Below are positions 1,800 through 64,000 of a DNA stretch of 64,000 nucleotides, piece after piece (the first letter of the stretch is position 1; each line of letters begins with the position of its first letter). The DNA is from Yuukianura sp. NJ FZ-2021 (taxonomy: Eukaryota). A program made the translations under genes and the position numbers. Below the pieces are notes generated by a model. It was not told the DNA's origin. It did no database searches and was given only the letters and a program-made list of their open reading frames with translations. Location: contig CM102285.1 of the NCBI GenBank assembly GCA_046563655.1, forward strand, positions 2,232,001-2,296,000, in the 5' to 3' direction.

Positions 1800-2038
1800 G
1801 GTACCCAGTTCTACGAAGTGAGAAACCCAGTTTTAAGAAGTGAGAAAGTTGCGTAAGAAGTGAGAAACCCAGTTTTAAGAAGTGAGAAAGTTGTGGAAGA
1901 AGTGAGAAACCCAGTTTTAAGAAGTGAGAAAGTTGTGGAAGAAGTGAGAAGCCCAGTTTTAAGAACTGAGAAAGTTGTGGAAGAAGTGAGAAACCCAGTT
2001 TTAAGAAGTGAGAAAGTTGTCGAAGAAGTGAGAAACCC
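1800..2038 (-). repeat. 42-bp tandem minisatellite (right arm, inverted relative to 1121-1370)
   Basis: Unit taagaagtgagaaagttgtggaagaagtgagaaacccagttt is the reverse complement of the left array. Confidence 0.9.
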
Positions 2039-2674
2039 TAACCATCAACGACCAACTACGAAATAGATTCTAAACTGCGTAAAGCCACGTGTGTGGGGGC
2101 AGTTAGAATATTGTATAAAAAAAAAGCAAATCTTACTTATGAAAAATAAATAAACTTGAATTCTTAAAAAAAAAAAAAACCCAATGTCCCTTTTACGCTT
2201 CCGTAGTGTAGCGCCCTACTGTTTAAATCATGTTGAAACATCAACAAAGAAAAAAAAAAGAATCCAGAGAGGTGGTCTCGAACCTACACTCTTTACCTCT
2301 CTTCTTCCCCCAACTCTCTATCTTTAACCACACGGCCACACTCGCTGTTTTGTCTACTACTACTTCTTCCATTCCTGCTCTTAAGATTACGATGGACAGA
2401 TTCGCTTATTACCCAATTTCCCATAAGACTTATGGTGCACTTCCTGACTGATTGGTAAGACCCTCAGAAAAGTACGACCACACTTTTCGCATTAGCACAC
2501 GCTAATAAACAGCACACCTGACGATTATTTGACGAAAACAGGACCCTTCGCCAAGAAAACTTAGGTTTTCTGGAAGATGTTTCTGAAAAACCCGGGAAAA
2601 CCCCTAACGAATACTTATTATAGTTGTTGAGTTTATTTTTATGGTGCACCTGCATACTTTTATGTTCTTTAAAT

Positions 2675-2885
2675 TGTACAATTTCAAACTTTTCGGTTTT
2701 TGATGTTGCACAATTTCAAACTATTTAGCTTTTCAGATGCACAACCGGCCACTTTTTGGTTTTTCTGTTTGCACCAATTCCACCTTCTCGTTTTTTCCCT
2801 GCACAAATTCCTCTTTTTCGTTTTTCTCCTACACAAATTCCAGTTTTAGGTTTTACTTGCTGCACCATTCCAAACTTTTGCGATT
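2675..2885. repeat. Degenerate ~30-bp tandem repeat
   Basis: Recurring (tg)cacaaattc...ttttcgttttt units. Confidence 0.55.
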
Positions 2886-3514
2886 TCGTTTTGTTTTCAA
2901 CAATAATTTAAAACGTAGAATTGCTGTTGAAAACTAGCTACTATGGGAATTCCTTAGATTTTGACAATGAAATTAAATTATTCAATCCAAAGTGACTAAC
3001 TTCATTGACAAAACTTTATGATACCCAGCCCCCTGCAAATGGCGCCCTTGGCAACCAACAGAATTTTTTGTTTGTGACGTCACCAGCTGAAAAATACCGT
3101 AATCGTCAAATTGGAACCCTCTGGCATTTATGTAAACAAGATGTGTCTTACGGGTTTCTATAGGACACCACCAATAATTGGCAGAATTCCGGTATTTTCA
3201 GCGGGTGACGTCATTTTTTTTCCACATGGCAACCAAACAAACTTTCCATTCGCACTACCTAGTAGTATTCTATTTACCTTGTATGATACCTACGTTTTAC
3301 AACATTACCAAAATTTGACACGCCCTTCCTCATCGTATAATGGTTGTTGTGTCAAATTTTCTTGATGTTGTAATGTATAATTCACCAATTTTTTGTGGGG
3401 CCCAAATCACAACCAAAACCGTAACCTTCCTTGATTGTTTGGATCAATTTGATTACCGTTGCGTAAATCAACACTCGGTGCTGAACATATTCACAACCAT
3501 AAATATGAAAAGTG

Positions 3515-3720
3515 TTACTTTTGTCACTGGCAATCCACAAAAGTTATTCACTTGGAAAATCAGTTTATAGTCCAGTGGCGTTGGGCGCATGGGCAATGGT
3601 TTTGCTTGGTATTGGAGTGACTCTGGGAATGACCTGCGCCGTATGTCAACAATATTCGCACGTAGTGACTTCAGGTTCGCCTGTATCACACAAGTTGTGT
3701 GGTGCACCTTGGACTTACTA
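3515..3720 (+). pseudogene. Ionotropic receptor relic (S1/TM1 region)
   Basis: Aligns by eye to the intact IR at ~8757-8945 (TFVTGNPQKLFTWK / SVYSPVALGAWAMVLLGIGVT), with a +1 frameshift (tggaaaatc vs tggaaatc). Confidence 0.85.
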
Positions 3721-4347
3721 CTATACTGGTAGAATGGAATACACTCCGGATGTACTAAATATTATCTTACAAATATTTTTATATCTTTCATGCGAAAATA
3801 TTTGTTTGGAAAAAGAAACGCGTTTCATTTTTCGTTTGAATCATATAGACAACTAAAAATTTAGCTAGAAATTGAAGTCAATTTTTTTTATTGTGTTTGT
3901 GTGAACTCAGATTCATAAAAGCCTGACACTTTTTTGCACTATTTAGGACCTATTCTTTTGTTACATTTGTTTGTTGATGCAGAAAGACTGTTATTTTTAT
4001 CGGAATCCTGTTTTGTAAGGGTCCACTGTTGTAAGGATCCACTTTTGTAGGTATCCACTTTTGAAGGTTACGAATTTGTAAAGTAGGATTTGTAAAATAT
4101 CCACTTTTGTCTATCCACTTCTGTCGGCGGATCGTTTTTGGTTATATTTGCATCACAATGGTAGCTTTATTACCTATTTGTATGAAGATATAATGCTAAT
4201 TTTTTTGAAAACTCAGCTGCCATATGCCAGTTTCCGTAAAATTCCAGACTTCGGCGAGCCTATAAATTTTTCGTTTTCGTCGCGCATTGATAGAATCTCG
4301 AAAAAAAAGAAAAGAAATAAAGCTATAGCAGAATCCAAGTGGAAACC

Positions 4348-5061
4348 ATGGAGCCGAAACTTATGTTTTTGACATTTGCTGCAACACTTTTCTGTGTCGG
4401 TTTCTGCGCCAACTCCAGGTCGGCGTACAAGCTGACGCCAGGCGTCCTGAAGAAGCAGTGTACACAATGTCGTTGTACAGGAAATGAACCACTAGATCCA
4501 GGCAGTATCCATCATCTGTTGAAACAACCACGCTCTATTCAGTACTCCAGCAAATTGCGACTTCAGTACATCTCACTGGTTACAACTGGCAAACCCTTGG
4601 AAGACGATGACGCTTTTGAGCGGCTCTTTTGTCCTGGACACATGACGATGAAGCTGCGGCTCAGAACCAAATCCATACTCACATTCAAACTGGATGGGAA
4701 GCCGGATGTAGCCAGTCGTTGCAAACATGACAAGCGTCGGTTTGAATGTCAATGGCCACGACTTGGATTGCTCTTCAAAAACTCAACCAATCAAATGCTT
4801 AAATCCGCGGCAGACTCACTCTTGGGCGACTACATAACAAAGACGCACTACGTTTGGGCAGATGACACTGCGGTACTGTATACGACTTGTACTGGCACGG
4901 AAGGATACAGTGGATGGCAAGTGAATTCAACTAAAGAAAAACTGAGTAAGCAACAAAGGAAAATGATCAAAAATATAGTAAAAGAACTGGGATTCAAACA
5001 GTCGGACACAATAAACGTAAGAAAGATGTGTAATAAAATTAAGAAACGTGGAGCAATCTAA
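4348..5061 (+). CDS. Secreted basic lipocalin-like protein, paralog 1 (intronless)
   Basis: Signal peptide and CTQCRC motif. The C-terminal YVWADD...C...GWQV-S-...L...K-I-KELGF resembles lipocalin SCR2/SCR3 plus the helix. The gene is clear but the fold is inferred. Confidence 0.8.
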   Translation: MEPKLMFLTFAATLFCVGFCANSRSAYKLTPGVLKKQCTQCRCTGNEPLDPGSIHHLLKQPRSIQYSSKLRLQYISLVTTGKPLEDDDAFERLFCPGHMTMKLRLRTKSILTFKLDGKPDVASRCKHDKRRFECQWPRLGLLFKNSTNQMLKSAADSLLGDYITKTHYVWADDTAVLYTTCTGTEGYSGWQVNSTKEKLSKQQRKMIKNIVKELGFKQSDTINVRKMCNKIKKRGAI

Positions 5062-19679: not shown

Positions 19680-22420
19680 TTATATTTCATAAACCACAGG
19701 CGCTGGTATAATCACTGCGTCGTGGTACTTCATCATGATTTCGCGGTATTGCTTCACCTGAAATTATAATATTATTTTTGTACAATTAAATTTATATCGT
19801 CGTCCATTGGCAGGCAGTGCATTATTTAGCATAATTTTGTTTGAATTAATAACTGAACTACATGTTGAAAGTGAAATGAGCAATCACTCACTTCGTCAAA
19901 GCGTATAAAACTGAATTCCATTCTTTGAAGCTGTCGTAGTTGTCCAGCATACATGAAAACCTCCCATTGAAGTTAGTTGGGGAGACCCCCCTGGGCCGAA
20001 GGCCCAGGGGGAGACCCCCGACCTAAAAAATTTCCCCCGACCCTCTGATCACCTAAATTTGACCTCCGACAAACCGGGTCCTCACCTAAATTTGACCTCC
20101 GACAAACCGGGAGGTCTCCCAAATCGCTTCTTTTTGTGCCAATCTTCAAAATTTTCTCGCGCCTTCGGCGCGATTGCTACTTTCCGGTGAAATCTGAGGG
20201 TCTCCGCTTCGTTTTTGCCTTCCTAATTTCAAAAATTTTTGGCGCCTACGGCGCAAATCAATGTCACCAATGAAATCTAAGGGTCTCCGCTTCGTTTTTG
20301 CCTCCCTAATTTCAAAATTTTCTGGCGCCTACGGCGCAAATCATTGTCACCAATGAAATCTAAGGGTCTCCGCTTCGTTTTAGCCTCTCTAAATTCAAAA
20401 TTTTCTGGCGCCTACGGCGCAAATCAGCGTCACCAATGAAACTAAAGGGTCTCCGCATCGTTTTCACCATCCCAGATTAAAAATTTGCTCGCGCCATAGG
20501 CGCGAATATTGCGTCCCCACAACACACTGTGCTGTGACTTAGTGACTGTGATTTTTTGGCGTGTGCTTCCAAAAAATGAGGAATTATCGCAAACCAATGT
20601 CGTTTTGCCGGCCGCAGGCCGGCAAATCGACAAAAAAAATGGGAGACCCCCCTTGGGCGGGGTCGGGAGACCCCCTTGAGTACTAGGGAGGTTTTCATGT
20701 ATGTTGTCCAGTTCTGCTAGCGTAAATAACTCCCTTCCAACACTCAATGTTTTCCCCGGAAAATTTCAAATGTGTCAATACTAAAACATAAACCAACACG
20801 TTATTAAATTAATCATATCAATACTATTATACTATATAAATAAATTAATACTAAAGAAATGAAGGTTTACACGGCAACTCTCGGAAGGATTCCATCGAAT
20901 CCGATGTTTCCTGTATTCCTAGCTCAACATTGCAAATTTCGTTGTTTGGTACATATTTAGTTCCGCCTGTTAGGTTGTTCCAGTGATCTATTGCAACATG
21001 GTCCTGGCTCTCCGAATGAGAAATGCAAATGTGCAGTTTGGTTAACTTTGAAAATCGAAAAATCCCCTTCAAAGTTTCAGAAACAACTTCCAAGTCTTGA
21101 ACATTTGGTAGTATTAATGGCCACTGTTGAACCTCTTCTGCAGATTTTAAACTGATGCTTGCACATTTGACATTTGGAAAAATGCATCCGGAAAAACTGA
21201 GTTGATTGGTCATGTTACAACTCCTGCAATCCAGAGTGGTGAGATATGGAAATTTGGTCGGTTGAATATTTTGCTGTTGAACTACAGGACAGTGCAAATA
21301 ATGAACCTTCAAACAACGCAAACGTGCTATAGAATGAAGCGGAATGGCTATCGGCACACCATACTGCCGGTAACGATTAACGTCTATAATCCAGTAGCGT
21401 TGGACTACGACAGAAAGTTTGCGCAAAAACGCCAGTTTCTCAATCCATTTTGTCAGTATGTCCAGTGTTGGTAATTGTTCTAAGCAGGCTCCTCCCGGAA
21501 TTAACACCAACTTCAATTCTACAATTCCGAGTTTTGTTGAAATTGCGACCAAGGTCTTTAGCTCATCTATACTCTTCACCGGTATGAAAAGTGTCAGCGA
21601 CAACTTTTTTATGTGAACGGTGCCGTTGGTTCTTCTGTGTAGCAGATTTAAAAGGCTTGTCACAGGTTTAAGTGGTCCAAATTTACATTTCCGACTTTTA
21701 ATTGTAACACTACGGAGATTTGGAGCCTTTTGAAGAATTTGATCAAGAAGAGGAAGGAAGTCGGGATTGGCTGGTTCGCCGAAGTATGTAATGTTGATCG
21801 TCTTTAAATAGATAAGACTAGGAACATTCATAAACTTGCCAATTTCCTCTTCAAAAATGGAGTGGCTGAGTTCTTCCACATTTTTGCAGTTTTCGAATAG
21901 GATCTTAATGTTTTTTGAAACGGAATTTTGTAATAGTGGTTTCGGCAAATTGTCGTACAGTATTTTCCACGCTTTAACAAACTTTCCGAACTTGACACAA
22001 AACTGCTTCAAATGCTTCGAGGTCGGATACGCAAAAAGACTTTCATTAAACCCAAATTTATGAAATGGAATATCTGTTTCGTTTTGCTCAAATGTTGAAA
22101 AAAATTTATCAATGTCACAGGCATTCTTAAGGTCCACTTGAAACCACTTTTGCATGATCGTCGTTGCTAGTTGATTGAAACGCTTACTCACTAGACGTAT
22201 GTGTCCAATATCGATCTTGTTCAAATAACCGATTATATGGAGTAGTACCTAAGAGACAAGTTCTTAAAGAATTATCACATCAATTAATAAGAAGTCATGT
22301 GCCTTGTATTTAAGATCGTCGCGTTTTAGCTAGATAAGTTTAAAGATACGACTTTACAATATCAAACTTCAAATTCTGATTTATTGGTGTTGGGCTTACC
22401 TCATTTGGGATGTCGTCCAT
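19680..22420 (-). pseudogene. F-box/LRR-like gene A, exon 3 interrupted by a MITE
   Basis: Exons 22420-22400, 22248-20871, 20780-19892 (split by the insertion) and 19757-19680. F-box MDDIPNEVLLHIIGYLNKIDIGHIRLVSKRFNQLA. The insertion introduces TGA two codons in. Confidence 0.85.
19948..20703. mobile_element. MITE with 8-bp TSD (P- or hAT-like) and internal ~81-bp tandem repeats
   Basis: Perfect 18-bp TIR catacatgaaaacctccc and TSD ttgtccag (19940-19947, 20704-20711). Paralogous exons lack the insertion. Confidence 0.93.
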
Positions 22421-23370: not shown

Positions 23371-23799
23371 GTAAGTTCCTTTTTTTTCTCAATCGGTAAA
23401 CCACCAGCTCCAGTCATCTCATGACTGGAGCTGGTGGTTTACTGGCTCCTGTAATTTCAGGCTCTTTGTATGACCTTTGTGGATTTTCGAATACATTGTT
23501 GTTTATTGTTGCAACACATTCAACACTGGTGTGTTTCAAAAACTCGTTCCTTTAAATTGTTAAATCTACAAAAGTTGTTCACTACATGGAGTTAAGCAAC
23601 TTTTTTTACAGGTTACCTTGACCCTTCACTTACAGTTTCGGAGGTATAGTCGCCAAACGTTGCTAAATTGCGTTGTTCCTGCTATGTGCATCTTTAAGTA
23701 TGGAATCACTGGACCGATTATACAAAAGTGGACAGTTTCCGCGCTATGCAACTCGTTTTTGTTTCGCTACTTACAGAGGTTTACTATTTACCATTTATT

Positions 23800-29184: not shown

Positions 29185-29704
29185 GACTGCCACGAAGGTT
29201 TCGTAACTTACTGACTGGTTCAAATGACAACTGAAAATTAGCTGTTGTGTGTATGTTTTTTTTTTTTTCGAAAATTGAGTACGCTTTTGAAAGTTTTGTT
29301 TGAAAAGAGGATTTGGCTGTCTACAAAAAATAGAAAACATGAATGAAAGCGGTGGTACCAAGTACGCAGCAGGCAGCAAGGGGCACTTTATCCTCGGTTG
29401 CTGGGTTTGTTATGGCACGAAGCTTACCTTTTAGCATAGCAATAGCAACACACTTGATGAGTGTTGTTGGGTGGTGCGGCGAATCCTAAGACACAGCAGA
29501 AGCGACTGACTTCTGACTTCAAACGGGCATTTTAGTTTAAAATTTTGTTACTCTGACGAAATGAAATATTCTACTACATGGTTGAGGCGTATGAAATTTA
29601 AATATATTAAACTACAGAAATAATTATAAATACATCGTAAGTATCAAAATATCAAATTTGTAAGAGAGTTATATAGGTGATGTTATCAGAGTTATCAGAA
29701 TCAG

Positions 29705-31770
29705 CTACGCTATTGTACAACAGTGGTTTGAAGTAGACCTATCTTGTATTGGATGTGGATCCCGCTGGTTTATGCCATTCACACTGTCATGGGATGGATT
29801 GCACTGGGTTATGCCATTCACGCTGTCATGGGATGGATTGCACTGGGTTATGCCATTCACACTGTCATGGTATTGCAGTAACACTTCCTGGTATTGATTT
29901 TTCTGAAAAAAAAGTATAAATATATTACCTGTAACTTTGTACAATTTAATTTGTTTCATTTTTGATTTATGTTCGCAAGTGAAATGTAACAGTGTAAAAA
30001 AAGTAATTTCACTAACTCAAACAGTGATCTATTAGCATATAGATTATGTCACTCACCAAATCAAATTGGTCAAAATTGAAATCCAGTCTTCGAAGACGGC
30101 GTAGTGTCCCAGTTCTACTTGCATAAATTACACCTTTCCAGCATTCAATGTTCTCCAACGAAAATGACAACTCCGACAAAACTATAAAATTGAAAGAAAA
30201 AAATTAAATTAAAATTTGAAAATACTTAAACCACCACTTAAAATGTCAGTAAAAAATAATTAAATGCTTACGTGGTAAGTTCCGGAAAGAATCCATAGGA
30301 CATAAAGTTTTGTGAACTATAACCGGGGAATTGCAAATTTCGTTACTCGGAATGTATTTTGCTCCGCCAGTTAGATACTTCCAATGTAACCGATGAACAG
30401 CACCGTTTGTATTACTGGCACGAATGGTAATATCAAGTTTCCGTAATTTTGAAAATACAAAAATGCCCTCTAGTGATTCAGATGTAATTTTTAAGTCTTC
30501 AACATTTGGTAGCATGAATGGCCACTTCACAATTTCTTCGTCAGTTGTTAAGTTAATTTCTGCACATTTTACATTTGGGAAGATACATCCCAAAAAGCTT
30601 GAGTTGTTGGTTATTGCGAAATTTTGACAACTGACGATGAGTTTAACAAGCACGGGAAAATACGCCTGTTTACATTTGACCCCTTGAATTTGGAATCCAA
30701 AAACTTCCAAAATTTGCAACTTTGCTAAGGAATGCAGTGGCAGCGAAATTGGATAAGCTACAGGCTCATCACGAAGCGAACGGATCCCGTCGTCGCGCTT
30801 GACCATAACAGCAAGCTTGCGCACAAATGTCAATTTTTCTAACCATTTTTCTAAAATGTGAAGTGTTTGGTATACCGATTCTGCGCCGATGTCGGTATCT
30901 CGAGCGTACATCTCCAACTTTAGCTCAAAAATTTTAAGTTGTTTTGAAATTGTGGCAAAATTTTTGACATCATCGATCGCCCGAGGAGGAACCCTAGTGC
31001 TCACACTTAACTTTACATGTACATTTGGTTTTATCTTTAGCACTTGGTCTAACAAAGTTGCTACCAACAGTAAGTCCACTTGCGAACCATCGACTGAAAT
31101 AGCATGTAGATTTGGCGCTAATTTTAAAAACTGAACCAGTAGTGGAAAGCAGTCGTCTGGATAAGAATATCTTGTCATGTATCTATATATAAACGTAATG
31201 TTGATTCTACGTAGGTTATTGAGAACTGGCATTGTTGCATGTTCACCCATCTCAACTTCATAAATGTAGTGACTGAATTCCTCTACATTTTGGCAGTTTT
31301 CCAACAACGTTTGGACGTTTCTGGAAAAGGCATGTCGTCTTATTACTGAAAAGTCAAACTCCAGAATATCCCACGTTTTAACAAATTTTCCAAATTCAGA
31401 ACAAAACGTATTCAGTGGCTGCCGTAACATTGTTTCGTAGAGGAGGTCACCTTTGAAACCAAACTTGTGAAAAATAAAACCGGTTTGACTTTGTTTAAAC
31501 ACTGTAACGTAATTGACGACATCACGGACTTTGTGAAAGTCTACTCTAAAATACGTTTGAACAAATGGTGTTGCCAGTTGATTGAAACGGTGACTCACGA
31601 GACGTAATTTTGGAATGTCGTTTTTGTCCAAAAAACTTATGATTATCTCCAGTACCTAAGAAACATTAGTTGATAAGAAAGTCAAAGAAAAACGGTTTAT
31701 TTAGTTTTAAGAAAGTTTCTGAAACATATTTTTCCGAGTTTAAACTTACATCATAGGGAACAGATTCCAT
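29705..31770 (-). CDS. F-box/LRR-like gene C, 4 exons, with a C-terminal 13-aa repeat
   Basis: Exons 31770-31750, 31655-30272, 30181-30057, 29902-29705. F-box MESVPYDVLEIIISFLDKNDIPKLRLVSHRF. Confidence 0.85.
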
Positions 31771-31814
31771 GGTTATCGTAAAAATAGCACCAAACTGCTA
31801 GTAATCCAAAGGAA

Positions 31815-31871
31815 GACTGAATCATTCAGTGAATGATTCAGTCATCATCAGAGTGACTGACGTTCACTCTG
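31815..31871. promoter_or_regulatory. Paired palindromes upstream of F-box gene C, containing TGAnTCA motifs
   Basis: gactgaatcattca-g-tgaatgattcagtc followed by cagagtga...tcactctg, ~45 bp upstream of the ATG and conserved at 49329-49394. Confidence 0.45.
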
Positions 31872-44670: not shown

Positions 44671-46781
44671 TTAAAAATCAAATACGCAGGAGGACTTCGG
44701 CGTGGAAATAGTCACAATGTTGTGGTCCTTCACCAATACTTTGCGGTATTGCCTCACCTGAAATAGCAAAGTCTTCTTAAAACTACATAATCCAATTTCC
44801 TTTTCGCATTACCAACAATACGTTAACATTGTAAATCAAAAAAAATTCCTGAGCAAACGCTGAAATGGGGCAACTGCTCATTCTGAATGTCGTTCAAAAT
44901 AAATATAATGACATTGCATGTCATAATACCCAATGAATTATACACTTAACTGTCAGGCGCTTACCTCGTCAAACTTGTGAAAACTGAAAACAAGTCTTTG
45001 AAGGCGTCCTAATTGACCAGTTCTACTTGCATAAATAACTCCCTTCCAGCACTCAATATTTTCCCCAGAAAACGTCAGTTCTCTCAATACTAAAAAACAA
45101 TAAACAAAAGCTGTTAACTTACAATTAGTTATTTTTTGTTGCATTTTCATAAATCAGAGATCAGTGAATTCGAAGTATATTTTAATAAAAACGAATTGGT
45201 AAAGACTACTATTCAAGCATTTGAAGAGTTAGTGACTCTTACGTGGCAAATTGCGAAAAGAATCAGTGGTCTCGTGAATCTGTAGCGGGAAATTGCAAAT
45301 CACTTCATTCGAAATATAGTTCGCTCCGCCTGTTAAATAGTTCCAGTGCAAACGCCTTTGATAACGCCTATTTGACCTAGATTTATATTGTGAATCAATC
45401 CTCAACTTCAGTTTTCTTAATTTTGAAAATTGAAAAATTCCCTGTAAAGTGTCAGAATCAATTTCCAAGTTTTCAACATTTGGTAGGATGAGTGGCCACT
45501 TTTCACGCTCTTGTTTTGTATTGAAACTGATACTTGCAGATTTCACATTTGGAAAAATATATCCGGAAAAGCTGAGTTTTTGGGTCATTTTGGAATTTCT
45601 GTAACTGAGGCTGGTGAGAACTGGAAATTCCATTGTGTCAGTCTCTACTGCAGGCGTGTGCAGAAAATAAACCTTCAAAAACTGCAAATTGGTTAGAGAA
45701 TTGAACGGTATCGGTATCTCAATTGGATATGGATAGCCTCCGTACCCGTAACTCATGCCATCAGGGCTAAGGTCACGGGTGACGCCCAAAGTCAATTTGC
45801 GTACAAATGTTAGTTTTTCAATCCAATTTGAAAAAATGTCCAGTGTTTCTGCTGAATTTGCGCCACGTGGAATTAAAAGCAAATTCAATTCAACAATTTT
45901 AAATTGGCTTGAAATTGTAATCAAATTGTTTAACTCATTGTCTGCCGATAGCAGATTGTTCAACGGCACGCCAAGTGTCAGATTCAACTTTTGCAAGTAA
46001 ACAGTTGGATTGGTTATGTTCAGTTGATTTAAGAGGTTTGTTACAGCAGTTGGCGGTTGTTGACATTCGCATTTCCGATATTCAATTGACACGTTACGGA
46101 GGTTTGGTGATTTTCGAAGAACTTGGTCCAACAGAGGAAAAGATTCGAACTTTTCTGTATACTTGGAAAATGTTATATTGATAGTTTTTAAATTAGTAAG
46201 CACTGGAATTATTGGAAATTGTCCACTTTCTTTATATAAAATGTAGTAACTCATTTCTTCCACATTTGCACAATTTTCCAGTAGTAGATTGACGTTTCCA
46301 AAAAACAAAGTCTTCTCGAGCTCGGATGCCGAGGAACCAAGGTCATACAAAATTTCCCACAGTTTTACAAATTTTCCAAACTTGATGCAAAACTTGTCGA
46401 ATGACTTAAAATACCGCAGCACATTTTCGTCAAACCCAAATTTATGGAATGGGAAAACTGATTTGCTTTTTTCGAATGTTTCAACAAATTTTGCAATATC
46501 ATAGTCTTTCTTGAAGTTCACTTTAAACAATTTTTGAACAAATGACGTCGCAAGGTGATCGAATCGCTTACTCACGAGACGCAAAGATGGAATGTCACTC
46601 TTCTTCAGATAGCTGATGATATGAAACAGTACCTGGAAGGCAAGTTTAATTACTCATAAACATATCAGTTAGTAAACAACGTGTACTTAATAAATAATAC
46701 GTGTCAAGTTCATAAATTAAAAAAACATAAATACTAGTACAACTATGAAGCTGAGTTTACCTCGTTTGAACAACTATCCAT
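44671..46781 (-). CDS. F-box/LRR-like gene D (duplicate of B), 4 exons
   Basis: Exons 46781-46761, 46632-45243, 45089-44965, 44757-44671. Confidence 0.85.
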
Positions 46782-47228
46782 GACTACCACGAAGGTTTTG
46801 TAACTTGCTAAATAACGTGACTGGTTATGGTGAAAACTGAAAATTATAATATGTCACGTTTTTCTTTTCAAAATTGAGTACTTTTTTGTAAGCTTTGTTT
46901 GAAAAGGTGAATTTGGCTGTTTAGGACAACAGGAAAACACGAATGAAAGCAGTAGCACGTAAGTTTAGCATAGCCAGTTGCTGAGACTTGTTGGGTGGTG
47001 TGGCGAATCCTAAGAGACAGCAGAAGCGACTGACTTTTGACATTGAACGGGCATTTTAGTTTAAAATTTTGTTACTCTGACGAAATAAAATATTCTACTA
47101 CATGGTTGAGGCGTATGATATTAAAATATATTAAACTACAGAAATAAGTGTAAATACATCGTAAGAATCAAAATATCAAATTTGTAAGAGAGTTATATAG
47201 GTAATGTTATCAGAGTTGTCAGAATCTT

Positions 47229-49287
47229 CTACGCTATTGTACAACAGTGGTTTGAAGTAGACCTATGTTGTATTGGATGTGGATTCCGCTGGTTTATGCC
47301 ATTCACACGGTCACGGTATGGATTCCACTGGTTTATGCCATTCATACTGTTACGGTGTGGATTCGACTGGTTTATGCCATTCACACTGTCATGGTATTGC
47401 AGTAACACTTCCTGGTATTGATTTTTCTGAAAAAAAGTATAAATATATTACCTGTAACTTTGTACAATTTAATTTGTTTCATTTTTGATTTATGTTCGCA
47501 AGTGAAATGTAACAGTGTAAAAAAGGTAATTTCACTAACTCAAACAGTGATCTATTAGCATATAGATTATGTCACTCACCAAATCAAGTTGGTCAAAATT
47601 GAAATCCAGTCTTCGAAGACGGCGTAGTGTCCCAGTTCTACTTGCATAAATTACACCTTCCCAGCATTCCCAGCTCGCCAACGAAAATGACAACTCCGAC
47701 AAAACTATAAAATTGAAAGAAAACAATTAAATTTAAATCTGAAAATACTTAAACGACAACTTAAAATATCAGTACAAAATATTGAAATGATTACGTGGTA
47801 AGTTCCGGAAAGAATTCATAGGACATAAAGTTTTGTGAACTATAACCGGGGAATTGCAAATTTCGTAGCTCGGAATGTATTTTGCTCCGCCAGTTAGATA
47901 CTTCCAATGTAACCGATGAACAGCACCGTTTGTATTACTGGCACCAATGGTAATATCAAGTTTCCGTAATTTTGAAAATCCAAAAATACCCTCCAGTGAT
48001 TCAGATGTAATTTTTAAGTCTTCAACATTTGGTAGCATGAATGGCCACTTCTTAATTTCTTCGTCAGTTGTTAAGTTAATTTGTGCACATTTTACATTTG
48101 GGAAGATACATCCGAAAAAGCTTGAGTTGTTGGTTGTTGCGCAATTTTGACAACTGAGTTTAACAAGCACGGGAAAATACGCCTGTTTACATTTGACCCC
48201 TTGAATTCGGAATCCAAAAACTTCCAAAGTTTGCAACTTTGCTAGGGAATGCAGTGGCAGCGAAATTGGATAACCTACAGGCTCATCACGAAGCGAACGG
48301 ATCCCGTCGTCGCGCTTGACCATAACAGCAAGCTTGCGCACAAATGTCAATTTTTCTAACCATGTGTCCAAAATGTGAAGTGTTTGGTATACCGATCCTG
48401 CGCCGATGTCGGTATCTCGAGCGTACATCTCAAACTTTAACTCAAAAATTTTAAGTTGTTTTGAAATTGTGGCAAACTTTTTGACATCATCGATCGCACG
48501 AGGAGGAACCCTAGTGCTCACACTTAACTTTACATGTACTTCTGGTTTTATCTTTAGCACTTGGTCTAACAAAGCTGTTACCAATAGTAAGTCCACTTGC
48601 GAACCATCGACTGAAATAGCACGTAGATTTGGCGCTAATTTTAAAAACTGAACCAGTAGTGGAAAGCAGTCGTCTGGATAAGAAGACCTTGTCATGCATG
48701 TATATATAAACGTAATGTTAATTCTACGTAGGTTATTGAGAACTGGCATTGTTACATGTTCACCCATCTCAACTTCAGAGATGTAGTGACTGAATTCCTC
48801 TACATTTTGGCAGTTTTCCAACAACGTTTGGACGTTTCTGTAAAAGATAGGTAGTCTTATTCCTGAAAAATTAAACTCCAGAATATCCCACGTTTTAACA
48901 AATTTTCCAAATTCAGAACAAAACGTATTCAGTGACTGCCGCAACATTGTTTCGTAGAGGAGGTCACCTTTGAAACCAAACTTGTGAAAAATAAGACCCG
49001 TTTGACTTTGTTTAAACACTGTAACGTAATTGACGACATCACGGACTTCTTGAAAGTCTACTCTAAAATACGTTTGAACAAATGGTGTTGCCAGTTGATT
49101 GAAACGGTGACTCACGAGACGTAATTTTGGAATGTCGTTTTTGTCCAAAAAACTTATGATTATCTCCAGTACCTAAGAAACATTAGTTGATAAGAAAATC
49201 AAAGAAAAACGATTTATTTAATTTTAAGAAAGTTTCTGAAACATATTTTTCCGAGTTTAAACTTACTTCATAGGGAACAGATTCCAT
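47229..49287 (-). CDS. F-box/LRR-like gene E (duplicate of C), 4 exons
   Basis: Exons 49287-49267, 49172-47795, 47704-47580, 47426-47229. Confidence 0.85.
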
Positions 49288-49964
49288 GGTTGTCGTAAAA
49301 ATAGCACCAAACTGCTGGTAATCCAAAGGATGACTGAATCATTCAGTGAATGATTCAGTCATCCTCATCATCAGAGTGAATGACATTCACTCTGTTTTAC
49401 AAATATTATTATCTTCGTTTTTAATCAATCGCAAAATTATCTGTTAAACTTTAATTATTATTGTTTTGCAGTGCATTTTTAGTAGCTATTAGCAAATATC
49501 GTCACGTAAACTTGTGGACGCTGAACCTATAAGGACTCGCAGAATCGTTCTTCCGCTATCGTACGACGTCGGGGTCGCATTATAGTTGCCCCGTTCCGTC
49601 GATGACTCAGTTTCCATGGGTATCCAACAAGTACACTGTCGTTGAACGCCATCAATACTTCCGGGTATCGCTCCATCTGAAATAGCAGTTATCTTCGTTA
49701 TATCTAACTTCGTTTACTTCATACCGCAAAATTATTACGACCGGAACTTACATACAACCCATAGGCCCAAAAAGTATGTATATTTTTTATCTTGCGTATA
49801 CAAGAAATTTTATAATAAAGTATTCCGGTCCATCTACATTCTACAGAGTTTTTGTGACGTAGAGATGCTAGACTCACTGCCTCCGTAGGAAGGAATAGAA
49901 ACACCAATCTTTTTTTGCATGTTATGTATGAGGGGAGAAAACCCGCAATATTCCTCGACAGAAT

Positions 49965-50225: not shown

Positions 50226-50332
50226 TTTGTTGCATGTGGTTGAGCTAAGCCACAGTGGAATACGTTGTATACACCCAGTTCGTTTACCCTCACCACTAGT
50301 AAAAAATCGCCCCGAATTATGTATATATATAC

Positions 50333-50462
50333 GGTATATACTTAAAATATATATGGTATATATTTAAAATACATATGGTATATATTTAAAATACATATGG
50401 TATATATTTAAAATACATATGGTATATATTTAAAATATATATGGTATATATTTAAAATATAT
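50333..50462. repeat. 22-bp AT-rich minisatellite, ~6 copies
   Basis: Unit ggtatatatttaaaatacatat. Confidence 0.92.
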
Positions 50463-50526
50463 CATATCATAAAAGGCTTGTCCTTTGTTTCCCCTTTATC
50501 CCTCTCCCTAGTCCTGACAGTTATCT

Positions 50527-57090: not shown

Positions 57091-58418
57091 TGTCTAAACG
57101 ATATCGAGAAAACCCTAGAGTTGACTTTTTACGCAGTGAAACTGATTTATTCACAGAACCAGGATACGATATCTCAATACAACATTCAACAAGTGTTGAA
57201 TACTTTCCATTAAATAATATAAGTGATAAAACGGCGCCGCTCACATTTTTTATTCAAGGAAATGATTTACAATACCTCGACTTTGCAGAATCCAAACTTT
57301 ACATCCGCTGTAAACTTACGAAAGAAAACGGAACAGATTTGGAAAAAGTAACAGACGCTGCTGTGCTTACATACGCACCAATTAACAACTTTTTACATTC
57401 AATGTTTGACAAGGTTACGATACACTTGAATGAAATGGAAATAACAAGTAAATGTAGCTACTATCCTCAGAGAGCCTACATTGAAAGCTTCTTGGGATAT
57501 AGCAAAAATTATAAAAAATCGATAGGAGAAGCTGCAATGCTAACAAAGACGGAATCGGAACTGAACACAACTGACAAAGGATTTTTGAAACGGAAGGACT
57601 TGGTTGATGGTAGTAAAGTTTTTGAAGTTGCAGGAAAATTACACACAGAACTTTTTAGCCAACCACGATTTCTGATTCCTGGAATTGACGTGAGAATTCA
57701 ACTACATAAATCAAGCGATGCATTTTGTTTACAATGCGTAGGCTCAGCCAAGCAAAACATAAAGTTTGCAATGTTGGAGGCCAAAATGATTGTCCGAAAA
57801 CATCAATTATTACCATCCATTCAGCTTGCACATTTAAAACATATGGAAAACGGCCATCCGGTAGTATATCCAAATCGATTTGTGGATATGAAGTCGTATA
57901 CTCTCCCGAGTGGAACTTTGTTTAATACAAATGAAAACATTCTGACTGGTCAAATCCCAAATCGTCTTATTTTGGGGTTAGTATCAAGCACTTCATTACA
58001 TGGAACTTACGAAACAAATCCTCTGGCATTTAGTCATTTTGACGTTAGTCAAATTAATGTAAAAGTCAACGGAGAGAATATTGCGGAACATGTTGTTGAG
58101 ATGGATTCAGCAGAAAACAGGAATGTGTTAGCCTACTTGTCACTATTTGAAAATTTAGGCCTAGCCAATTGTGATGCTGGAGTTGACATAAAGTTAGACG
58201 AGTACAAAAACGGCAAAGTTTTACATGTTTTTAATTTAAGAAATATAAAAGATACGTTTTGCCTTCCAAAATTTGGAAACGTAGCAATAACGATAAGATT
58301 TAAGGCCGCTACAACTGAATCAATCACCGCAATTGTTTATGCAGAGTACGAGTCAACACTATACATTAATCGAGAAAAACAAATTTATCTTAAAGATTAT
58401 ACAAAGGAATCAATATGA
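57090..58418 (+). CDS. Polinton major capsid protein (double jelly-roll, PY/hexon-like)
   Basis: SETDLF, YLDFAESKLY, APINNFLHSMF, YPQRAYIE, LHTELFSQPRFLIPGID, PNRLILGLV and NPLAF motifs. Confidence 0.92.
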   Translation: MSKRYRENPRVDFLRSETDLFTEPGYDISIQHSTSVEYFPLNNISDKTAPLTFFIQGNDLQYLDFAESKLYIRCKLTKENGTDLEKVTDAAVLTYAPINNFLHSMFDKVTIHLNEMEITSKCSYYPQRAYIESFLGYSKNYKKSIGEAAMLTKTESELNTTDKGFLKRKDLVDGSKVFEVAGKLHTELFSQPRFLIPGIDVRIQLHKSSDAFCLQCVGSAKQNIKFAMLEAKMIVRKHQLLPSIQLAHLKHMENGHPVVYPNRFVDMKSYTLPSGTLFNTNENILTGQIPNRLILGLVSSTSLHGTYETNPLAFSHFDVSQINVKVNGENIAEHVVEMDSAENRNVLAYLSLFENLGLANCDAGVDIKLDEYKNGKVLHVFNLRNIKDTFCLPKFGNVAITIRFKAATTESITAIVYAEYESTLYINREKQIYLKDYTKESI

Positions 58419-58939
58419 TGAATACGGTAGAGTTGATGTATTGTTTAACAAGAATCATGAAACGGCAAAAAGGACAATACGATGTGTTACCATGTGACAA
58501 ACTAAAACATTACAAAATTCAGAGTTATCCGTTGTTATTAATTATCAATAGTGATGAGAGTCACCTGGAAGGAAAACACTGGGTAGGGATCTATGTCAAA
58601 CGTTATGGATCCGAAGTCGAATTCTTTTGCAGTTATGGAAGAAGCATATATCAATATTCACACTATTTTATCGAATTTGCTATTCGTTTAAAATCAAACA
58701 TTCTGGAAAGCCAGCAGCGAGTACAAAGTGCATACACAACCACTTGCGGAAACCATGTGCTATTTTTCTTGCACAAAAGACTAGTGGGATGTCCACGGAG
58801 TACATTTTATCGTGTATTTAATAATGATTATGTTAAAAATGATAAAATAGTATTGAAGTTTGTAAACAAGATATTTAGAAAAAAATTTATTCCATCTCAT
58901 AAAAACAATCAATGTTGTCAATGTGAAAATAGCAAATAA
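58415..58939 (+). CDS. Polinton adenain-like cysteine protease
   Basis: IINSD...GKHWV, EFFCSYG and Q.....TCGNH motifs. Confidence 0.9.
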   Translation: MMNTVELMYCLTRIMKRQKGQYDVLPCDKLKHYKIQSYPLLLIINSDESHLEGKHWVGIYVKRYGSEVEFFCSYGRSIYQYSHYFIEFAIRLKSNILESQQRVQSAYTTTCGNHVLFFLHKRLVGCPRSTFYRVFNNDYVKNDKIVLKFVNKIFRKKFIPSHKNNQCCQCENSK

Positions 58940-59841: not shown

Positions 59842-59931
59842 TCTGATGAAGGTGCAAAAGCAAAATGCAAAGAATACACAATGTATTAAACATAAATACA
59901 TTTGTTGGTAATACGTTAGTAGGTATTTGGT

Positions 59932-60849
59932 ATGGAGCAGGAAATATTGAATTCCTATACTGATACAAAAAATGTTGGCTCATTTACTGGTGCTGATAAT
60001 TTTTACAAAACAAATAAATTTGCTGGAAAAAAAAAGATTGCAAACATACTGCTAGGAGCGAAAGGCTATAGGCTCCACCATCCTGCAAAAAAATTTGTGC
60101 GTAGAATTGTTTATTGTCCAGCATTGTACGACCAAGTAGGAGTAGATTTAATTGATATACAAAAATACAAAAAGTCAAACTATGGAAAACGTTACATTTT
60201 AGTGGTGGTAGACTGCTTTAGTAAAATGGCATTTATGGAAGCATTAAAAGATAAAAAATGTGAAACAGTACGTTTGGCAATGGAAAACATACTTGATCGT
60301 AACAAAATAAAATTTTCATACTGTCAAAGTGATGGTGGAAGTGAATTTGTAGGAAAAGTTATGAAAAAATGGTACCTAGATAATAATATTACACATTTTG
60401 TAACTTCCAGTCCTATTAAAGTTAGCTATGTTGAGCGATTCATTCGTACCATATTTTCTCAAATATCACGCTATATGACGCAGAATAACACAAAACGTTT
60501 TGTACACAAACTAAGAGATTTTGAGCATTCATACCAAAATTCTTATCATCGTTCCATTGGTACAACACCGGCTTCAGTGACCAAAAATAATGAGTGTGAA
60601 ATTTGGGAAAAATTGTATGGAAAAGTACGGAAAATAAAAAAATCAAAGATCTTCAAAGTAGGAAACAAAGTAAATATTAAAATTACGAAAAAAAAATTTA
60701 GCAAAGGTTATTCTCCAAACTTTGAAGACAAGGTGTATAACATAACCAGAGTCATACAAACAAATCCTGTGACGTATGAGGTTTCAGATGAAAAGAATAG
60801 TATATTAAGTAGAAAATTTTATCAACAAGAGTTAGTTTTAATTGGATAA
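59932..60849 (+). CDS. Polinton retroviral-like DDE integrase
   Basis: VDLID, VVDCFSK, SDGGSEF, VERFIRT, YHRSIG, FKVGNKV, FSKGY and FYQQEL. The DDE triad is intact. Confidence 0.95.
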   Translation: MEQEILNSYTDTKNVGSFTGADNFYKTNKFAGKKKIANILLGAKGYRLHHPAKKFVRRIVYCPALYDQVGVDLIDIQKYKKSNYGKRYILVVVDCFSKMAFMEALKDKKCETVRLAMENILDRNKIKFSYCQSDGGSEFVGKVMKKWYLDNNITHFVTSSPIKVSYVERFIRTIFSQISRYMTQNNTKRFVHKLRDFEHSYQNSYHRSIGTTPASVTKNNECEIWEKLYGKVRKIKKSKIFKVGNKVNIKITKKKFSKGYSPNFEDKVYNITRVIQTNPVTYEVSDEKNSILSRKFYQQELVLIG

Positions 60850-61427: not shown

Positions 61428-61838
61428 TTAAACATTTAGTTTACAATTTGGTTGACACTTTTCAAACTTTTCTGTTAGACGTCCATGCACGACAAGTCTT
61501 TTCAAATAGTAGACAACTTCATCCAAATCCTCCACTGAAAGTCCAGCATCTTTCCATTGTGTAGCAATTTGCTTAATCAAAGTTTTCCCATTGTCCTTCA
61601 CGTTAAAGTTGAGATAGGAGCTTTCTCCATTGGAAGTTTCACAAACCAAATGAGCAATCAGAGTAGAATTAATTGACGATTTTGTAAAACCAATCTTGAG
61701 ACGCTTTCGTAACGTTTCATCAGAAAAATCCAAAGTCTTTCCATCTCTAATTTCTTGGATTTGTAGTGGTAAAAGTTCAGTCAATAAAGGCTGAACAATA
61801 TTGAACAAATTCTTAATATGTATGTTTGACTCCATCAT
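61428..61838 (-). CDS. Polinton unknown protein, YLNF-domain paralog
   Basis: Clear paralog of 61930-62301, with its own TATA box at ~61875-61882. Confidence 0.75.
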   Translation of the reverse strand: MMESNIHIKNLFNIVQPLLTELLPLQIQEIRDGKTLDFSDETLRKRLKIGFTKSSINSTLIAHLVCETSNGESSYLNFNVKDNGKTLIKQIATQWKDAGLSVEDLDEVVYYLKRLVVHGRLTEKFEKCQPNCKLNV

Positions 61839-61929
61839 AAAAGTAAATGAAAAAGAATCAACTTGCTACTCGTCTTTTATACCTTCAACTAATCATCAAT
61901 GACAAATTTATTCAATGTTTGAAATAAAT

Positions 61930-62301
61930 TTAATTCTTTGCAAGCCTACCATGGTAAGCAAGCGACTTGATGTAAGTAGCCACGTTGTCCATATCATCTG
62001 GTGAGAAGCCCGCAAAAATCCATTGAGCAGCAATTTCTTTAATCAGTGCCTTGCCCTCCAATCCAACATTAAAATTCAAATAGTATTCTTGTACTCCTTT
62101 ACTTGACTCCTTTGGTTTCCTGTTCAAGTGAGCCATCAGCGGCGAGCTTGAAGTAGACTTTGAAAACGAAATCTTCAATCGATGAGTTGAATCTGTTTTC
62201 AAAATGTTGACATCAGGGTCACCAGTCACCACTTCTCCATAAGATGCAGTTGGTTGTTCCCCCTCAGCAGTTGGTGTCTCAGGAATAGTTGAAGAATCCA
62301 T
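61930..62301 (-). CDS. Polinton unknown protein, YLNF-domain paralog
   Basis: LKISFSKS...LMAHL...YLNFNV...GKALIKEIAAQW..AG, with a TATA box at ~62351-62358. Confidence 0.75.
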   Translation of the reverse strand: MDSSTIPETPTAEGEQPTASYGEVVTGDPDVNILKTDSTHRLKISFSKSTSSSPLMAHLNRKPKESSKGVQEYYLNFNVGLEGKALIKEIAAQWIFAGFSPDDMDNVATYIKSLAYHGRLAKN

Positions 62302-62572
62302 TTTTTTTGTTTTCGAAAAGATGTGATAAAGTTGTCATTTTTTGTTCCACTTTATATACCAAAAATTACATGACTTGGAAACATTAACAAGAGTTGTTAA
62401 TTTGTTCGTAATTACTCTAATTAAGAGTATCAATGTTATTAGTTAAATGGAAACTAATTACCCTCATTAACCTTGACACTTTTTTCAAACTCAGAAACAT
62501 CATTTTTGAAAACCAAATATAAACCTTTCAAAATTGAAATTGGTTATAACATTTTTTTCCAAAAGTTGAGCA

Positions 62573-63681
62573 ATGACAGAAGCAAGCATTGTAACAGAAA
62601 TTAACTCTCAATTCCAAAATGGAACTGAGAGGCCAAGAACTTGTCCAGGTTTCAAACTTTTTAAAAAAAGGAGTAACAAGTCGGAAAAATTTCCAGTTTT
62701 GTTTCGAGATTTTGGTTTAAACAAGTTACCATTTACTAAACTTTGTAACCATAATCCGTGTGAGCCACAAGCAGAATACGAATATTACTTAACTAAACTC
62801 GTAGCAAATGAGTTTTTGAATGGAAGCCAGTGGGAAAGTCTTCGACCAATGACTTGGAGGGAATTTTACAGTGGTGTAACTGGTCCTCCAACTCCAGTTT
62901 TTGCAGAGCTTAGTGAAATTGATTGGGATCATTGCCATGGTTTTTTATTAGACAAGGGACCATTGGCTTTGTCTGAAGGTCAAAGTGCTACAAACATGTA
63001 TCCTGGTGTAAATTGGATCCCCACGAATAACGTACCATATACAAAGGCGTGTCCCCACGGTGGTCACTGCGATAAAAGCGTAGTGGCCAAATTCTCAATA
63101 ATTCGCGCCTATGCATGCGGAGTTTTGCCTGGCTTCGACCCTGATACGGTGAGTGCATTGGGTCCTCTGGAGACAATTCAAGAAACTGCAAGTACTAGCT
63201 ATCTGAACCAAGTCACAGATGGTGGCATTGGATTGAGAACAGCAATAATAAACTTGCTGAATGAGACGGATACTCCAGAATCACCAAAGTGGCATCCCTC
63301 AAGTCTTGTAATTGCTGATCCAAATTTGGAACCCTTTGCCTTTCGTACATTGGTTTGGACACAGCAAAGCACTTGGAATGGTACTGAAAGTACAATGGTA
63401 CACATGGAAAGAAAGCCAAGAGTTTCAACAAGGCCAGACACAAAGGAAATGTACCTCAACTTTAGTTTACACGAAAGTCCTGGTGTAATTTCAGAATTGG
63501 TTCGACATTGTATTCTCGGAGGTTTAGACGATGAATTGAAACCAGTTTTTGGTATCCTCAAGGAAAAGTTTCAACGGAGGTAAGTTTTTTTTACAACTTT
63601 TTTTTTCTGGATTTTTCAATTTTTTTTTTTTGCAGATCCGGGGGAGGGAGGGGGAGACGCCGCGCCGCCGCCCCCATATGA
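62573..63681 (+). CDS. Polinton unknown protein with two C-x-H-x(2-3)-C motifs and a C-terminal YLNF domain, probably spliced
   Basis: ORF 62573-63583. A candidate intron at 63580-63635 adds exon 63636-63681. Confidence 0.7.
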
Positions 63682-63784
63682 AGCCTATGGCTTCATAACA
63701 TATGCGAATAACGCATAGGATATGCCCTTTGGGCATAAAATATGCCCCTATGGGGCATAAGGAGCCTTATGCGAATAACGCATA
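63677..63784. repeat. Array of five TATG...CATA-closed hairpins
   Basis: Hairpins at 63677-63697, 63701-63717, 63721-63737, 63741-63759 and 63768-63784. Confidence 0.9.
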
Positions 63785-63841
63785 GAAATTGAATAAAATG
63801 AGAGTCATGGGCGGAAATGTAGTGTAGTTTTGTTTTTGACT

Positions 63842-64000
63842 ATGGAGTGTCCAGACTTTGATTTTCGTCTTTTAACACCATTTTGTATGACAATTTCTGG
63901 TCCATCTCAATCTGGAAAGTCTACAATTTGTAAACAAATTTTGAAGAGAAGGCATGAGTTGCTAGATTGTTGCATAGATGAAGTTTTATATTGTTATTCA
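63842..64000 (+). CDS. Polinton packaging ATPase (FtsK/A32-like), 5' part
   Basis: MECPDFDFRLLTPFCMTISGPSQSGKSTICKQIL...EVLYCYS with Walker A GPSQSGKS. Runs off the window and is absent from the ORF track. Confidence 0.9.
   Translation, partial: MECPDFDFRLLTPFCMTISGPSQSGKSTICKQILKRRHELLDCCIDEVLYCYS

Follow-up and report, generated by a model that had tools for sequence, protein, structure and literature searches.

An array of five perfect hairpins at the end of an uncharacterised gene is conserved in a lineage of probable Polinton-type elements

Short hairpins and palindromes act in cis in several described systems. Five iron-responsive elements (IREs) lie in the 3′ untranslated region (3′UTR) of the transferrin-receptor mRNA; the histone 3′ stem-loop combines a 6-bp stem and a 4-nt loop with conserved flanks; baculovirus hrs are imperfect palindromes of ~30 bp that share their sequence, lie at several dispersed loci and serve as enhancers and origins; the hairpins of phages N4 and Ff, formed by DNA that is single-stranded or extruded, serve in packaging, priming or transcription; and the A-repeats of adenovirus (TTTG-N8-CG) stand in several copies near the genome end. 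Polintons, or Mavericks, are regarded both as transposons and as viruses. In the Mimiviridae, according to one report (PMC4402537), a 'hairpin rule' holds by which palindromes of any foldable sequence at gene ends signal 3′ ends, and a second (PMC6723459) places the hairpin signal also at genes of the Sputnik virophage (16 genes). Here we describe an array of five perfect hairpins in a 64,000-nt stretch of DNA from Yuukianura sp. NJ FZ-2021 (GenBank assembly GCA_046563655.1, contig CM102285.1, positions 2,232,001 to 2,296,000; hereafter the window). The array lies between an uncharacterised gene and the start of a packaging ATPase gene in what appears to be a Polinton-type element, and its pairing has been kept by compensatory changes in two related elements.

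Compared with these systems, the array would share with the transferrin-receptor IREs a series of tandem short hairpins in one 3′UTR, a conserved structure and the form of a multivalent protein platform; IREs, however, have a conserved CAGUGN loop and a C bulge, whereas the array has variable loops and a conserved stem base. Searching 63300-64000 with Rfam cmscan at E <= 10 returned four weak matches, none meaningful and none an IRE; no Rfam match to the histone 3′ stem-loop (RF00032) was found, and the loops of the array are of 3 or 5 nt. Like the palindromes of the hairpin rule, which belong to a virus group related to Polintons, the hairpins stand just past a gene end, but that rule covers most genes, with one hairpin each and with giant-virus enzymes, whereas here five hairpins follow a single gene of an element with nuclear-type introns and AATAAA/TATA boxes. 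The baculovirus hrs are likewise palindrome arrays acting as protein-binding cis elements in an invertebrate double-stranded DNA (dsDNA) virus; in contrast to them, the array has units of 16-23 nt that are perfect, that differ in inner sequence and that form one array per element part. REP/BIME elements are also clusters of short G+C-rich palindromes placed right after stop codons, with a conserved stem base and with roles proposed at both the RNA and the DNA level, yet they are bacterial, RAYT-mobilised and dispersed in hundreds of copies, while the array occupies one fixed site of a eukaryotic, virus-like element. The N4 promoters and Ff hairpins A-E resemble it as small DNA hairpins (5-7 bp, 3-nt loop) in sets of five, but belong to phage systems with defined conserved sequences, and no homologous enzymes were seen here. 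The adenovirus A-repeats, several short repeated units acting with an IVa2-type packaging ATPase, differ in being near the genome end and in not being palindromes; at the sole TTTG of the array (63728-63731), the position of the CG, 8 nt further on, is taken by AT. Wherever defining features were testable, the array is a member of none of the systems compared.

Nor did we find the array described in the main texts of the freely accessible literature searched, in agreement with the sequence-only reading of this DNA made before the present analysis, which had not recognised it as a known Polinton feature. The terms hairpin, palindrom and stem-loop occur nowhere in the adintovirus paper PMC8502044 or in two nematode Polinton preprints; in their available portions, the Halocafeteria preprint mentions only terminal palindromes, and a paper on cryptophyte Polinton-like viruses only Rfam histone stem-loops. 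Across the available text of the Polinton and adintovirus literature searched, no cis-acting signals besides terminal inverted repeats were found.

The array spans 63677-63784 (108 nt), and both direct reading and repeat and hairpin scans revealed five perfect inverted repeats, all five closed by TATG...CATA and separated by spacers of 3, 3, 3 and then 8 nt, exactly as had first been read from the letters. Hairpin 5 is an exact copy of hairpin 2 and is preceded by the single long spacer, hairpin 3 is identical in sequence to the fourth hairpin (3118-3134) of the related element L013 described below, and the inner stems of the units other than 2 and 5 differ in sequence and length. Tandem Repeats Finder (TRF) reported two copies of a 22-nt period over 63720-63760, and a repeat search a family spaced 20 nt. 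A census of distinct perfect hairpins (stem of at least 6 bp, loop of 3-5 nt) gave 144 in the window, among which none outside the array is closed by TATG...CATA, and no second copy of the array was found in the window. The highest number of non-overlapping hairpins per 110 nt is five, at the array only, and two elsewhere in the window; in 100 dinucleotide-preserving shuffles of the window this maximum was two in 83, three in 15, four in one and one in one, and never five. The five hairpins are real, and chance is excluded. Folded as single-stranded DNA (ssDNA), the array takes five separate hairpins as its minimum-energy structure on both strands, with z-scores of -8.0 (+ strand) and -6.2 (- strand). 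Folding 63636-63830 as RNA gave z = -4.4 and a minimum-energy structure that pairs hairpin 2 with hairpin 5, a pairing we set aside as a side effect of their identity, there being no such duplicate in L013 or in the second relative, L014.

These two relatives are metagenome contigs recovered with a three-sequence alignment (A3) of the protein family encoded by the gene upstream of the array, here labelled P0001. L013 (5250 nt) carries an intronless gene for a 350-aa homologue at 2002-3054, 40% identical to the window protein, and L014 (1237 nt) encodes a homologue that is 41% identical. Each contig has an array of five hairpins, 106 nt long in L013 and 105 nt in L014, with spacers of mostly 2-3 nt; both fold as five hairpins on either strand, with z-scores of -5.6 to -6.2. 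They occupy the same place with different inner stems that are still paired, which supports the earlier proposal that structure rather than sequence is conserved. In all three elements the homologous gene has its stop codon within hairpin 1 (window, TGA 63679-81, if spliced; L013, TAG 3052-54; L014, TAG 1066-68). The three arrays further have in common five units and the loop-size order 3, 5, 3, 3 or 4, 5, a match that, with three arrays, chance alone would give in about 1 in 32 per comparison.

Across the 15 hairpins of the three elements, 111 of 113 stem positions are Watson-Crick pairs, none is G-T and two are mismatches, both in hairpin 2 of L014; the decay seen in the closest two relatives thus amounts to two mismatches in one hairpin of 15, and in this respect the alignment and covariation check suggested earlier came out in favour of the array. 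Every hairpin has T-A at stem position 1 and A-T at position 2 (15/15 each), position 3 is T-A in ten, G-C in two, C-G in two and A-A in one, position 4 is G-C in 14/15, and the pair that closes the loop is C-G in 13/15, while deeper positions vary between C-G, G-C, A-T and T-A. The best register sets window hairpins 1-4 against hairpins 2-5 of L013 and L014; in this shifted register a stretch of ~26 nt differs between the window and L013 by one 1-nt indel. In the resulting three-way alignment (A5) 96.4% of cells pair, and of the 29 pairs five have changed in both arms and none in a single arm; three of these five changed by transversion swaps, C-G to G-C or C-G to A-T, for which no wobble intermediate is possible. 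The observed pairing or covariation score was reached in 0/500 shuffles, and sliding the partners against each other lowered pairing to 18-48%, controls that with three sequences are descriptive only. Simulated neutral decay from L013 left the full set of 39 pairs unbroken in 4 of 20000 runs when the change per site was 10%, and in 0 of 20000 when it was 18%; adjacent coding DNA differs by 25-38% between the elements. Identity of the array is 77.8% between the window and L013, against 63.8% for adjacent coding DNA, and 80.4% against 75.4% between L013 and L014; the array is no less conserved than the coding DNA next to it.

Taken together, this analysis shows that pairing is kept through two-sided changes while the sequence drifts. 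Because its relatives keep it by compensatory changes, we regard the array as a conserved cis element rather than as a miniature inverted-repeat transposable element (MITE) or a chance repeat. It is tied to the P0001-family gene in one lineage of Polinton- or adintovirus-like elements, and its units form a module with stems of 6-9 bp, loops of 3-5 nt and a stem base of T-A, A-T, N-N′ and G-C. The array links a gene that is conserved but uncharacterised with one particular nucleic-acid structure; being short, sharply defined and compensated across neighbours that are 40% identical, it also offers an experimental handle, for reporters, as protein bait or as a lineage marker.

Further copies were sought among short contigs from public sequencing runs of two organisms, compared with 62570-64000. 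One contig runs across 63506-63776 and departs from the window in 4 letters and 29 gap positions, another covers 63674-63761 with 1 other letter and 1 gap, and five, from runs of both organisms, join the array at 63672-63675 to G-rich upstream sequence unlike that of the window. Two of these five divergent upstream stretches were translated by hand, and both are open in the frame of the same TGA. The single indel listed within the array among these contigs is the loss of one A from a spacer run at 63737. Within the reach of these contigs the array recurs at the ends of similar but diverged gene tails, not in unrelated contexts, and since every copy visible in these short contigs follows the same kind of gene end, the possibility that it is a fragment of a MITE or host satellite, raised as the alternative by the sequence-only reading, found no support.

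In IMG/VR, a profile of the ATPase returned a sole locus, L019, whose ATPase is 37% identical and is immediately preceded by a 943-aa open reading frame (ORF); this more distant relative has neither a P0001-type gene nor an array. No close relatives of the L013 ATPase and none of the upstream protein were found in IMG/VR, and a two-unit TATGC...GCATA pattern gave 12 loci there, none with complementary inner parts. Four IMG/VR loci with the exact 17-nt sequence of hairpin 3 were judged unrelated, L015/L017 and L016 by their flanks only and L018 because its contig is rich in G+C and its ORFs are of prokaryote type. An IMG/VR search with P0004 reported one stretch that codes for a relative of P0004, so that a fourth, more distant element may exist in that collection.

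Table 1. Features of the array, of its surroundings in the window and of the related arrays (L013 and L014 numbered on their own contigs; paired numbers in brackets give stem in bp and loop in nt).
Feature	Coordinates	Strand	Description	Basis
Hairpin 1	63677-63697		9-bp stem, 3-nt loop (tat)	repeat and hairpin scans
Hairpin 2	63701-63717		6-bp stem, 5-nt loop (aataa)	repeat and hairpin scans
Hairpin 3	63721-63737		7-bp stem, 3-nt loop (ttt)	hairpin scan
Hairpin 4	63741-63759		8-bp stem, 3-nt loop (tat)	repeat and hairpin scans
Hairpin 5	63768-63784		6-bp stem, 5-nt loop (aataa)	repeat and hairpin scans
Exon 1, upstream gene (P0001 family)	62574-63579	+	two Cys...Cys-x-His-x2-3-Cys modules, C-terminal 'YLNF' region	ORF
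Candidate intron, 56 nt	63580-63635	+	GTAAGT...TTTTGCAG	direct reading; putative splicing
Candidate exon 2	63636-63681	+	15 codons, G+C-rich; basic Gly/Arg/Ala tail; TGA 63679-63681 inside hairpin 1	
AATAAA box	63792-63797	+	7 nt past array	putative role
Packaging ATPase gene, 5′ part	63842-64000 (runs off window)	+		weak P-loop matches
rve integrase	59923-60849			Pfam rve, E = 3.1e-9, above cut-off
Protease candidate	58394-58939		ORF with adenain-like HW...CG motifs	by eye
Minus-strand ORFs	61428-61865, 61930-62334	-	divergent from upstream gene; 'YLNF'-like stretch	by eye
L013 hairpins 1-5	3052-3070 (8/3), 3073-3095 (9/5), 3099-3115 (7/3), 3118-3134 (7/3), 3137-3157 (8/5)			
L014 hairpins 1, 3, 4, 5	1066-1082 (7/3), 1111-1127 (7/3), 1130-1145 (6/4), 1148-1170 (9/5)			
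L014 hairpin 2	1085-1107		9 stem positions, 2 internal mismatches, 5-nt loop	

In the window the array stands between two genes (Table 1). The upstream gene would continue across a candidate intron into a short second exon; without splicing, its ORF terminates at TAA 63581-63583, 94 nt before the array. The previously noted G-rich/C-rich tract in front of the array is this tail-coding candidate exon, and the placement of the array at the stop codon of a spliced gene holds if the candidate intron is removed. The ATPase was also correctly placed just downstream: its ATG (63842) follows 57 nt after the array, and the 53 aa visible in the window are 64% identical to the L013 ATPase, whose homologues match PF04665 in 14 and PF02456 in 2 of 26 cases (Pfam). 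Judging from the integrase, the start of an A32/IVa2-type ATPase gene and a protease recognised by eye only, the array probably sits in a Polinton-type element, with 8.5 kb or more between it and the left-most Polinton gene of the window. The window cuts off the right half of the element; in the part inside, Pfam and PDB gave no matches to a capsid gene or pPolB, and PDB searches with two further window ORFs gave no matches. Taken on their own, the F-box genes at 45-49 kb and the GTAAGT...TTTTGCAG form of the intron would suggest a nematode-like host. The AATAAA box that follows the array may serve the upstream gene as poly(A) signal, the ATPase gene as a TATA-like box, or the two genes at once. 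At 50324-50466, immediately left of the Polinton genes, lies an A+T-rich tandem repeat of ~4 copies of a 22-nt unit TATGG...ACATA, which fits a loose TATG...CATA pattern but is not a perfect palindrome.

The window and L013 agree in gene order: a minus-strand 'YLNF' ORF is followed by the P0001 homologue, the array and, last, the ATPase. Between the array and the ATPase (3847-4491) of L013 stand two small ORFs (3224-3793), and the ATPase starts 690 nt past the array. L013 has TATAAATA at 3190-3197, 32 nt past its array, so that a box of the A(A/T)TAAA type follows the array in two of the three elements, after 7 nt in the window and 32 nt in L013. One array was seen per element part, in ~9 kb of the window element and 5.25 kb of L013: the window part has no G+C-rich perfect hairpins (stem of at least 6 bp) outside 63677-63784, and the only G+C-rich perfect hairpins of L013 at this threshold are the five at 3052-3157. 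The arrays form a local G+C-rich island within A+T-rich elements. IAP-like genes are typical of insect and invertebrate DNA viruses, and an ORF at 227-808 of L013 has a C-terminal RING-like Cys pattern and an N-terminal region that is BIR-like by eye (IAP-like).

The sequence-only reading had offered four functions, namely a packaging signal, an ssDNA replication element, a hairpin-directed 3′-end signal and a translational operator in the 3′UTR, and the data single out none of them. We lean, tentatively, towards a gene-specific role at the RNA level, in which the array would be a five-hairpin protein-binding platform in the 3′UTR of the upstream gene. No poly(A) signal is possible before the array, and it is therefore probably transcribed as nearly the whole of the 3′UTR. 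The mRNA of the upstream gene would form the five stem-loops, a protein recognising the shared stem base would bind them as a multivalent platform, and the bound protein would set stability, translation or 3′ end of that single mRNA; by linkage only, a candidate binder is the protein that the gene itself encodes, which has Cys/His modules and a basic tail. The link to this gene is that its stop codon abuts the array in all three elements, while the downstream neighbour is not constant (57 against 690 nt to the ATPase), and that L019 lacks gene and array alike. The array is moreover gene-specific and not a general gene-end signal, as the L013 junction between stop 3793 and ATG 3847 has AATAAA and TATAAAA boxes only and no G+C-rich hairpins. 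Such an RNA-acting array would be an unusual multi-hairpin 3′UTR operator in a DNA virus-like element. Several observations, however, weigh against this proposal. That the array lies in a 3′UTR is deduced from there being no poly(A) signal ahead of it, and the intron is a candidate; the 67 nt left of L014 beyond its array contain no A(A/T)TAAA box. Neither loops nor spacers are conserved, whereas the majority of known proteins that bind RNA hairpins recognise loops. The comparison covers three arrays, two of which (L013 and L014) are from the same metagenome. The two strands fold equally well, and no G-U (G-T) pair occurs among the 113 stem positions, nor is any of the five variable pairs changed on one side only; because RNA stems usually tolerate G-U, this symmetry without wobble fits a constraint on DNA, or template copying, better.

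The same symmetry is the strongest argument for a signal at the DNA level, which we consider rather unlikely yet the nearest competitor: the palindromes would form hairpins on displaced ssDNA or be extruded from supercoiled DNA, and would mark the genome once, for encapsidation by the A32/IVa2-type ATPase, for control of replication or pausing, or for partition or tethering. The transversion swaps and the equal folding of the two strands agree with it, as do the single array per element part in its G+C-rich island and the ATPase gene, which keeps to one side of the array in the two elements that show it. The distance from TATG to CATA varies between 7 and 13 nt, which points to recognition of a folded form rather than of B-DNA, and the adjacent protein has Cys/His modules and a basic tail, with zf-CCHC in 1 of 16 homologues. 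Cis sites often adjoin the gene of their binding protein, and the adjacent product is thus a possible binder here too. Stems of 6-9 bp are nevertheless short for cruciform extrusion, elements replicated from terminal proteins need no internal origin, and by analogy with adenovirus a packaging signal would be expected near the genome end, whereas the array is at least 8.5 kb away from the left-most Polinton gene seen. Packaging, as a reading based on the adjacency of the ATPase, is weakened because the array is tied to the upstream stop codon and not to the ATPase, whose distance goes from 57 to 690 nt. Were the array to act as DNA, it would bear on the packaging or maintenance of Polinton-type genomes. 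It is unlikely, in our estimate, that five DNA hairpins, formed on displaced single strands or extruded from the duplex and read at their common stem base by the neighbouring Cys/His protein with its basic tail, constitute the first genome-level cis signal in animal Polintons or adintovirus-like elements; if they did, the array would be an encapsidation or maintenance mark, and gene and array a linked pair of protein and site, comparable to a small terminase with pac or ParB with parS. Formation of transcript 3′ ends directed by the hairpins, or termination or insulation before the next promoter, would suit an array at a gene end just before the TATA-like box of the next gene, and palindromes of variable sequence that always fold are the giant-virus hallmark (PMC4402537, PMC6723459). 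Yet there are five hairpins rather than one, and only one gene end per element has them, the other L013 junction being free of G+C-rich hairpins; the introns and AATAAA/TATAAA boxes of these elements are typical of nuclear RNA polymerase II genes, and the element parts available showed neither an RNase III gene nor one for a poly(A) polymerase, all of which makes this reading improbable.

About as improbable is an array without function, in which a palindromic unit of ~20 nt was duplicated and its arms were kept complementary by hairpin-templated repair, template switching or conversion. Such copying would yield two-sided changes that are Watson-Crick only, and signs of unit turnover do exist: the 22-nt TRF period and the family spaced 20 nt, the duplication of hairpin 2 as hairpin 5, and the offset by one unit in the best alignment of the window with L013, which suggests units gained and lost; a repeat at 19950-20700 of the window also holds short G+C palindromes in tandem units. 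Self-templating, however, does not explain the invariant stem base (15/15, 15/15 and 14/15), unit number, length and start at the stop codon persist where the neighbouring protein is 40% identical, and the array is more conserved than the adjoining coding DNA. The least probable of the readings, and a far-fetched one, is a dsDNA promoter or enhancer in which the GCATA-N2-3-TATGC junctions between units would be dimer sites driving the downstream gene or genes. These spacer-centred inverted repeats do have a nearly constant gap of 2-3 nt, and a TATA-like box follows the array in the window and L013, but none occurs in the 67 nt that follow the L014 array, the gene downstream varies from element to element, and the perfect complementarity of inner stems that would not be read, kept through two-sided changes, is left unexplained. 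Readthrough of the stop codon was rejected, since the frame beyond the stop stays open for 9 codons in the window and for 13 in L013, short extensions that are unrelated, as was a Pol III or VA-like gene, with no A or B box found by eye.

The protein upstream of the array is 40% identical to the L013 protein over 348 aligned positions. A full HMMER search with P0001 revealed 36 remote homologues, unnamed springtail and metagenome proteins among them, whereas a word-indexed search found no relatives at near lengths. A Pfam scan of 16 of the 36 left 15 without a match and found zf-CCHC knuckles in one, and a PDB profile search with the P0001 alignment gave matches at chance level only (best E = 0.72). 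The family has two copies of the motif C-P-G-F...P-(F/Y)-T-x-x-C-x-H-x2-3-C, a weak repeat (BLASTP between the halves, E = 0.001), together with a conserved KPRVSTR...EMY(L/I)NF stretch and an Arg-rich tail; the L013 and L014 homologues likewise end in Arg-rich tails encoded by G+C-rich DNA. Near the C-terminus of the window protein, I-L-G-G-L resembles by eye an adenain cleavage motif. The gene may be a counterpart of the 'puORF' of nematode Polintons. The by-eye 'YLNF' likeness between the minus-strand ORF of L013 (1190-1669) and the L013 P0001 homologue was not supported by BLASTP (E = 10).

Other palindromic features of the window lie to the left of the Polinton genes. At 19950-20700 stands a foldback MITE-like element, the inverted ends of which share 'catacatgaaaacctccc...gggagaccccc' and enclose ~5 tandem units of ~60-65 nt, each with a short G+C palindrome of the type GGCGCC-tac-GGCGC; longer G+C hairpins lie at 19987-20011 and 20604-20626, and the sequence is unrelated to the Polinton array. 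The longest palindrome in the window is a perfect one of 47 nt at 23396-23442 (22-bp stem, 3-nt loop). Identical hairpins recur between ~29500-31850 and ~47050-49400 at a constant offset of ~17.52 kb (for example 29529/47053, 30027/47550, 31620/49137 and 31815/49327), which indicates a direct segmental duplication that includes the F-box-type ORFs 45229-46653 and 47769-49172. Within it, the palindrome at 49327-49365 (18 bp) is longer than its copy at 31815-31843 (13 bp).

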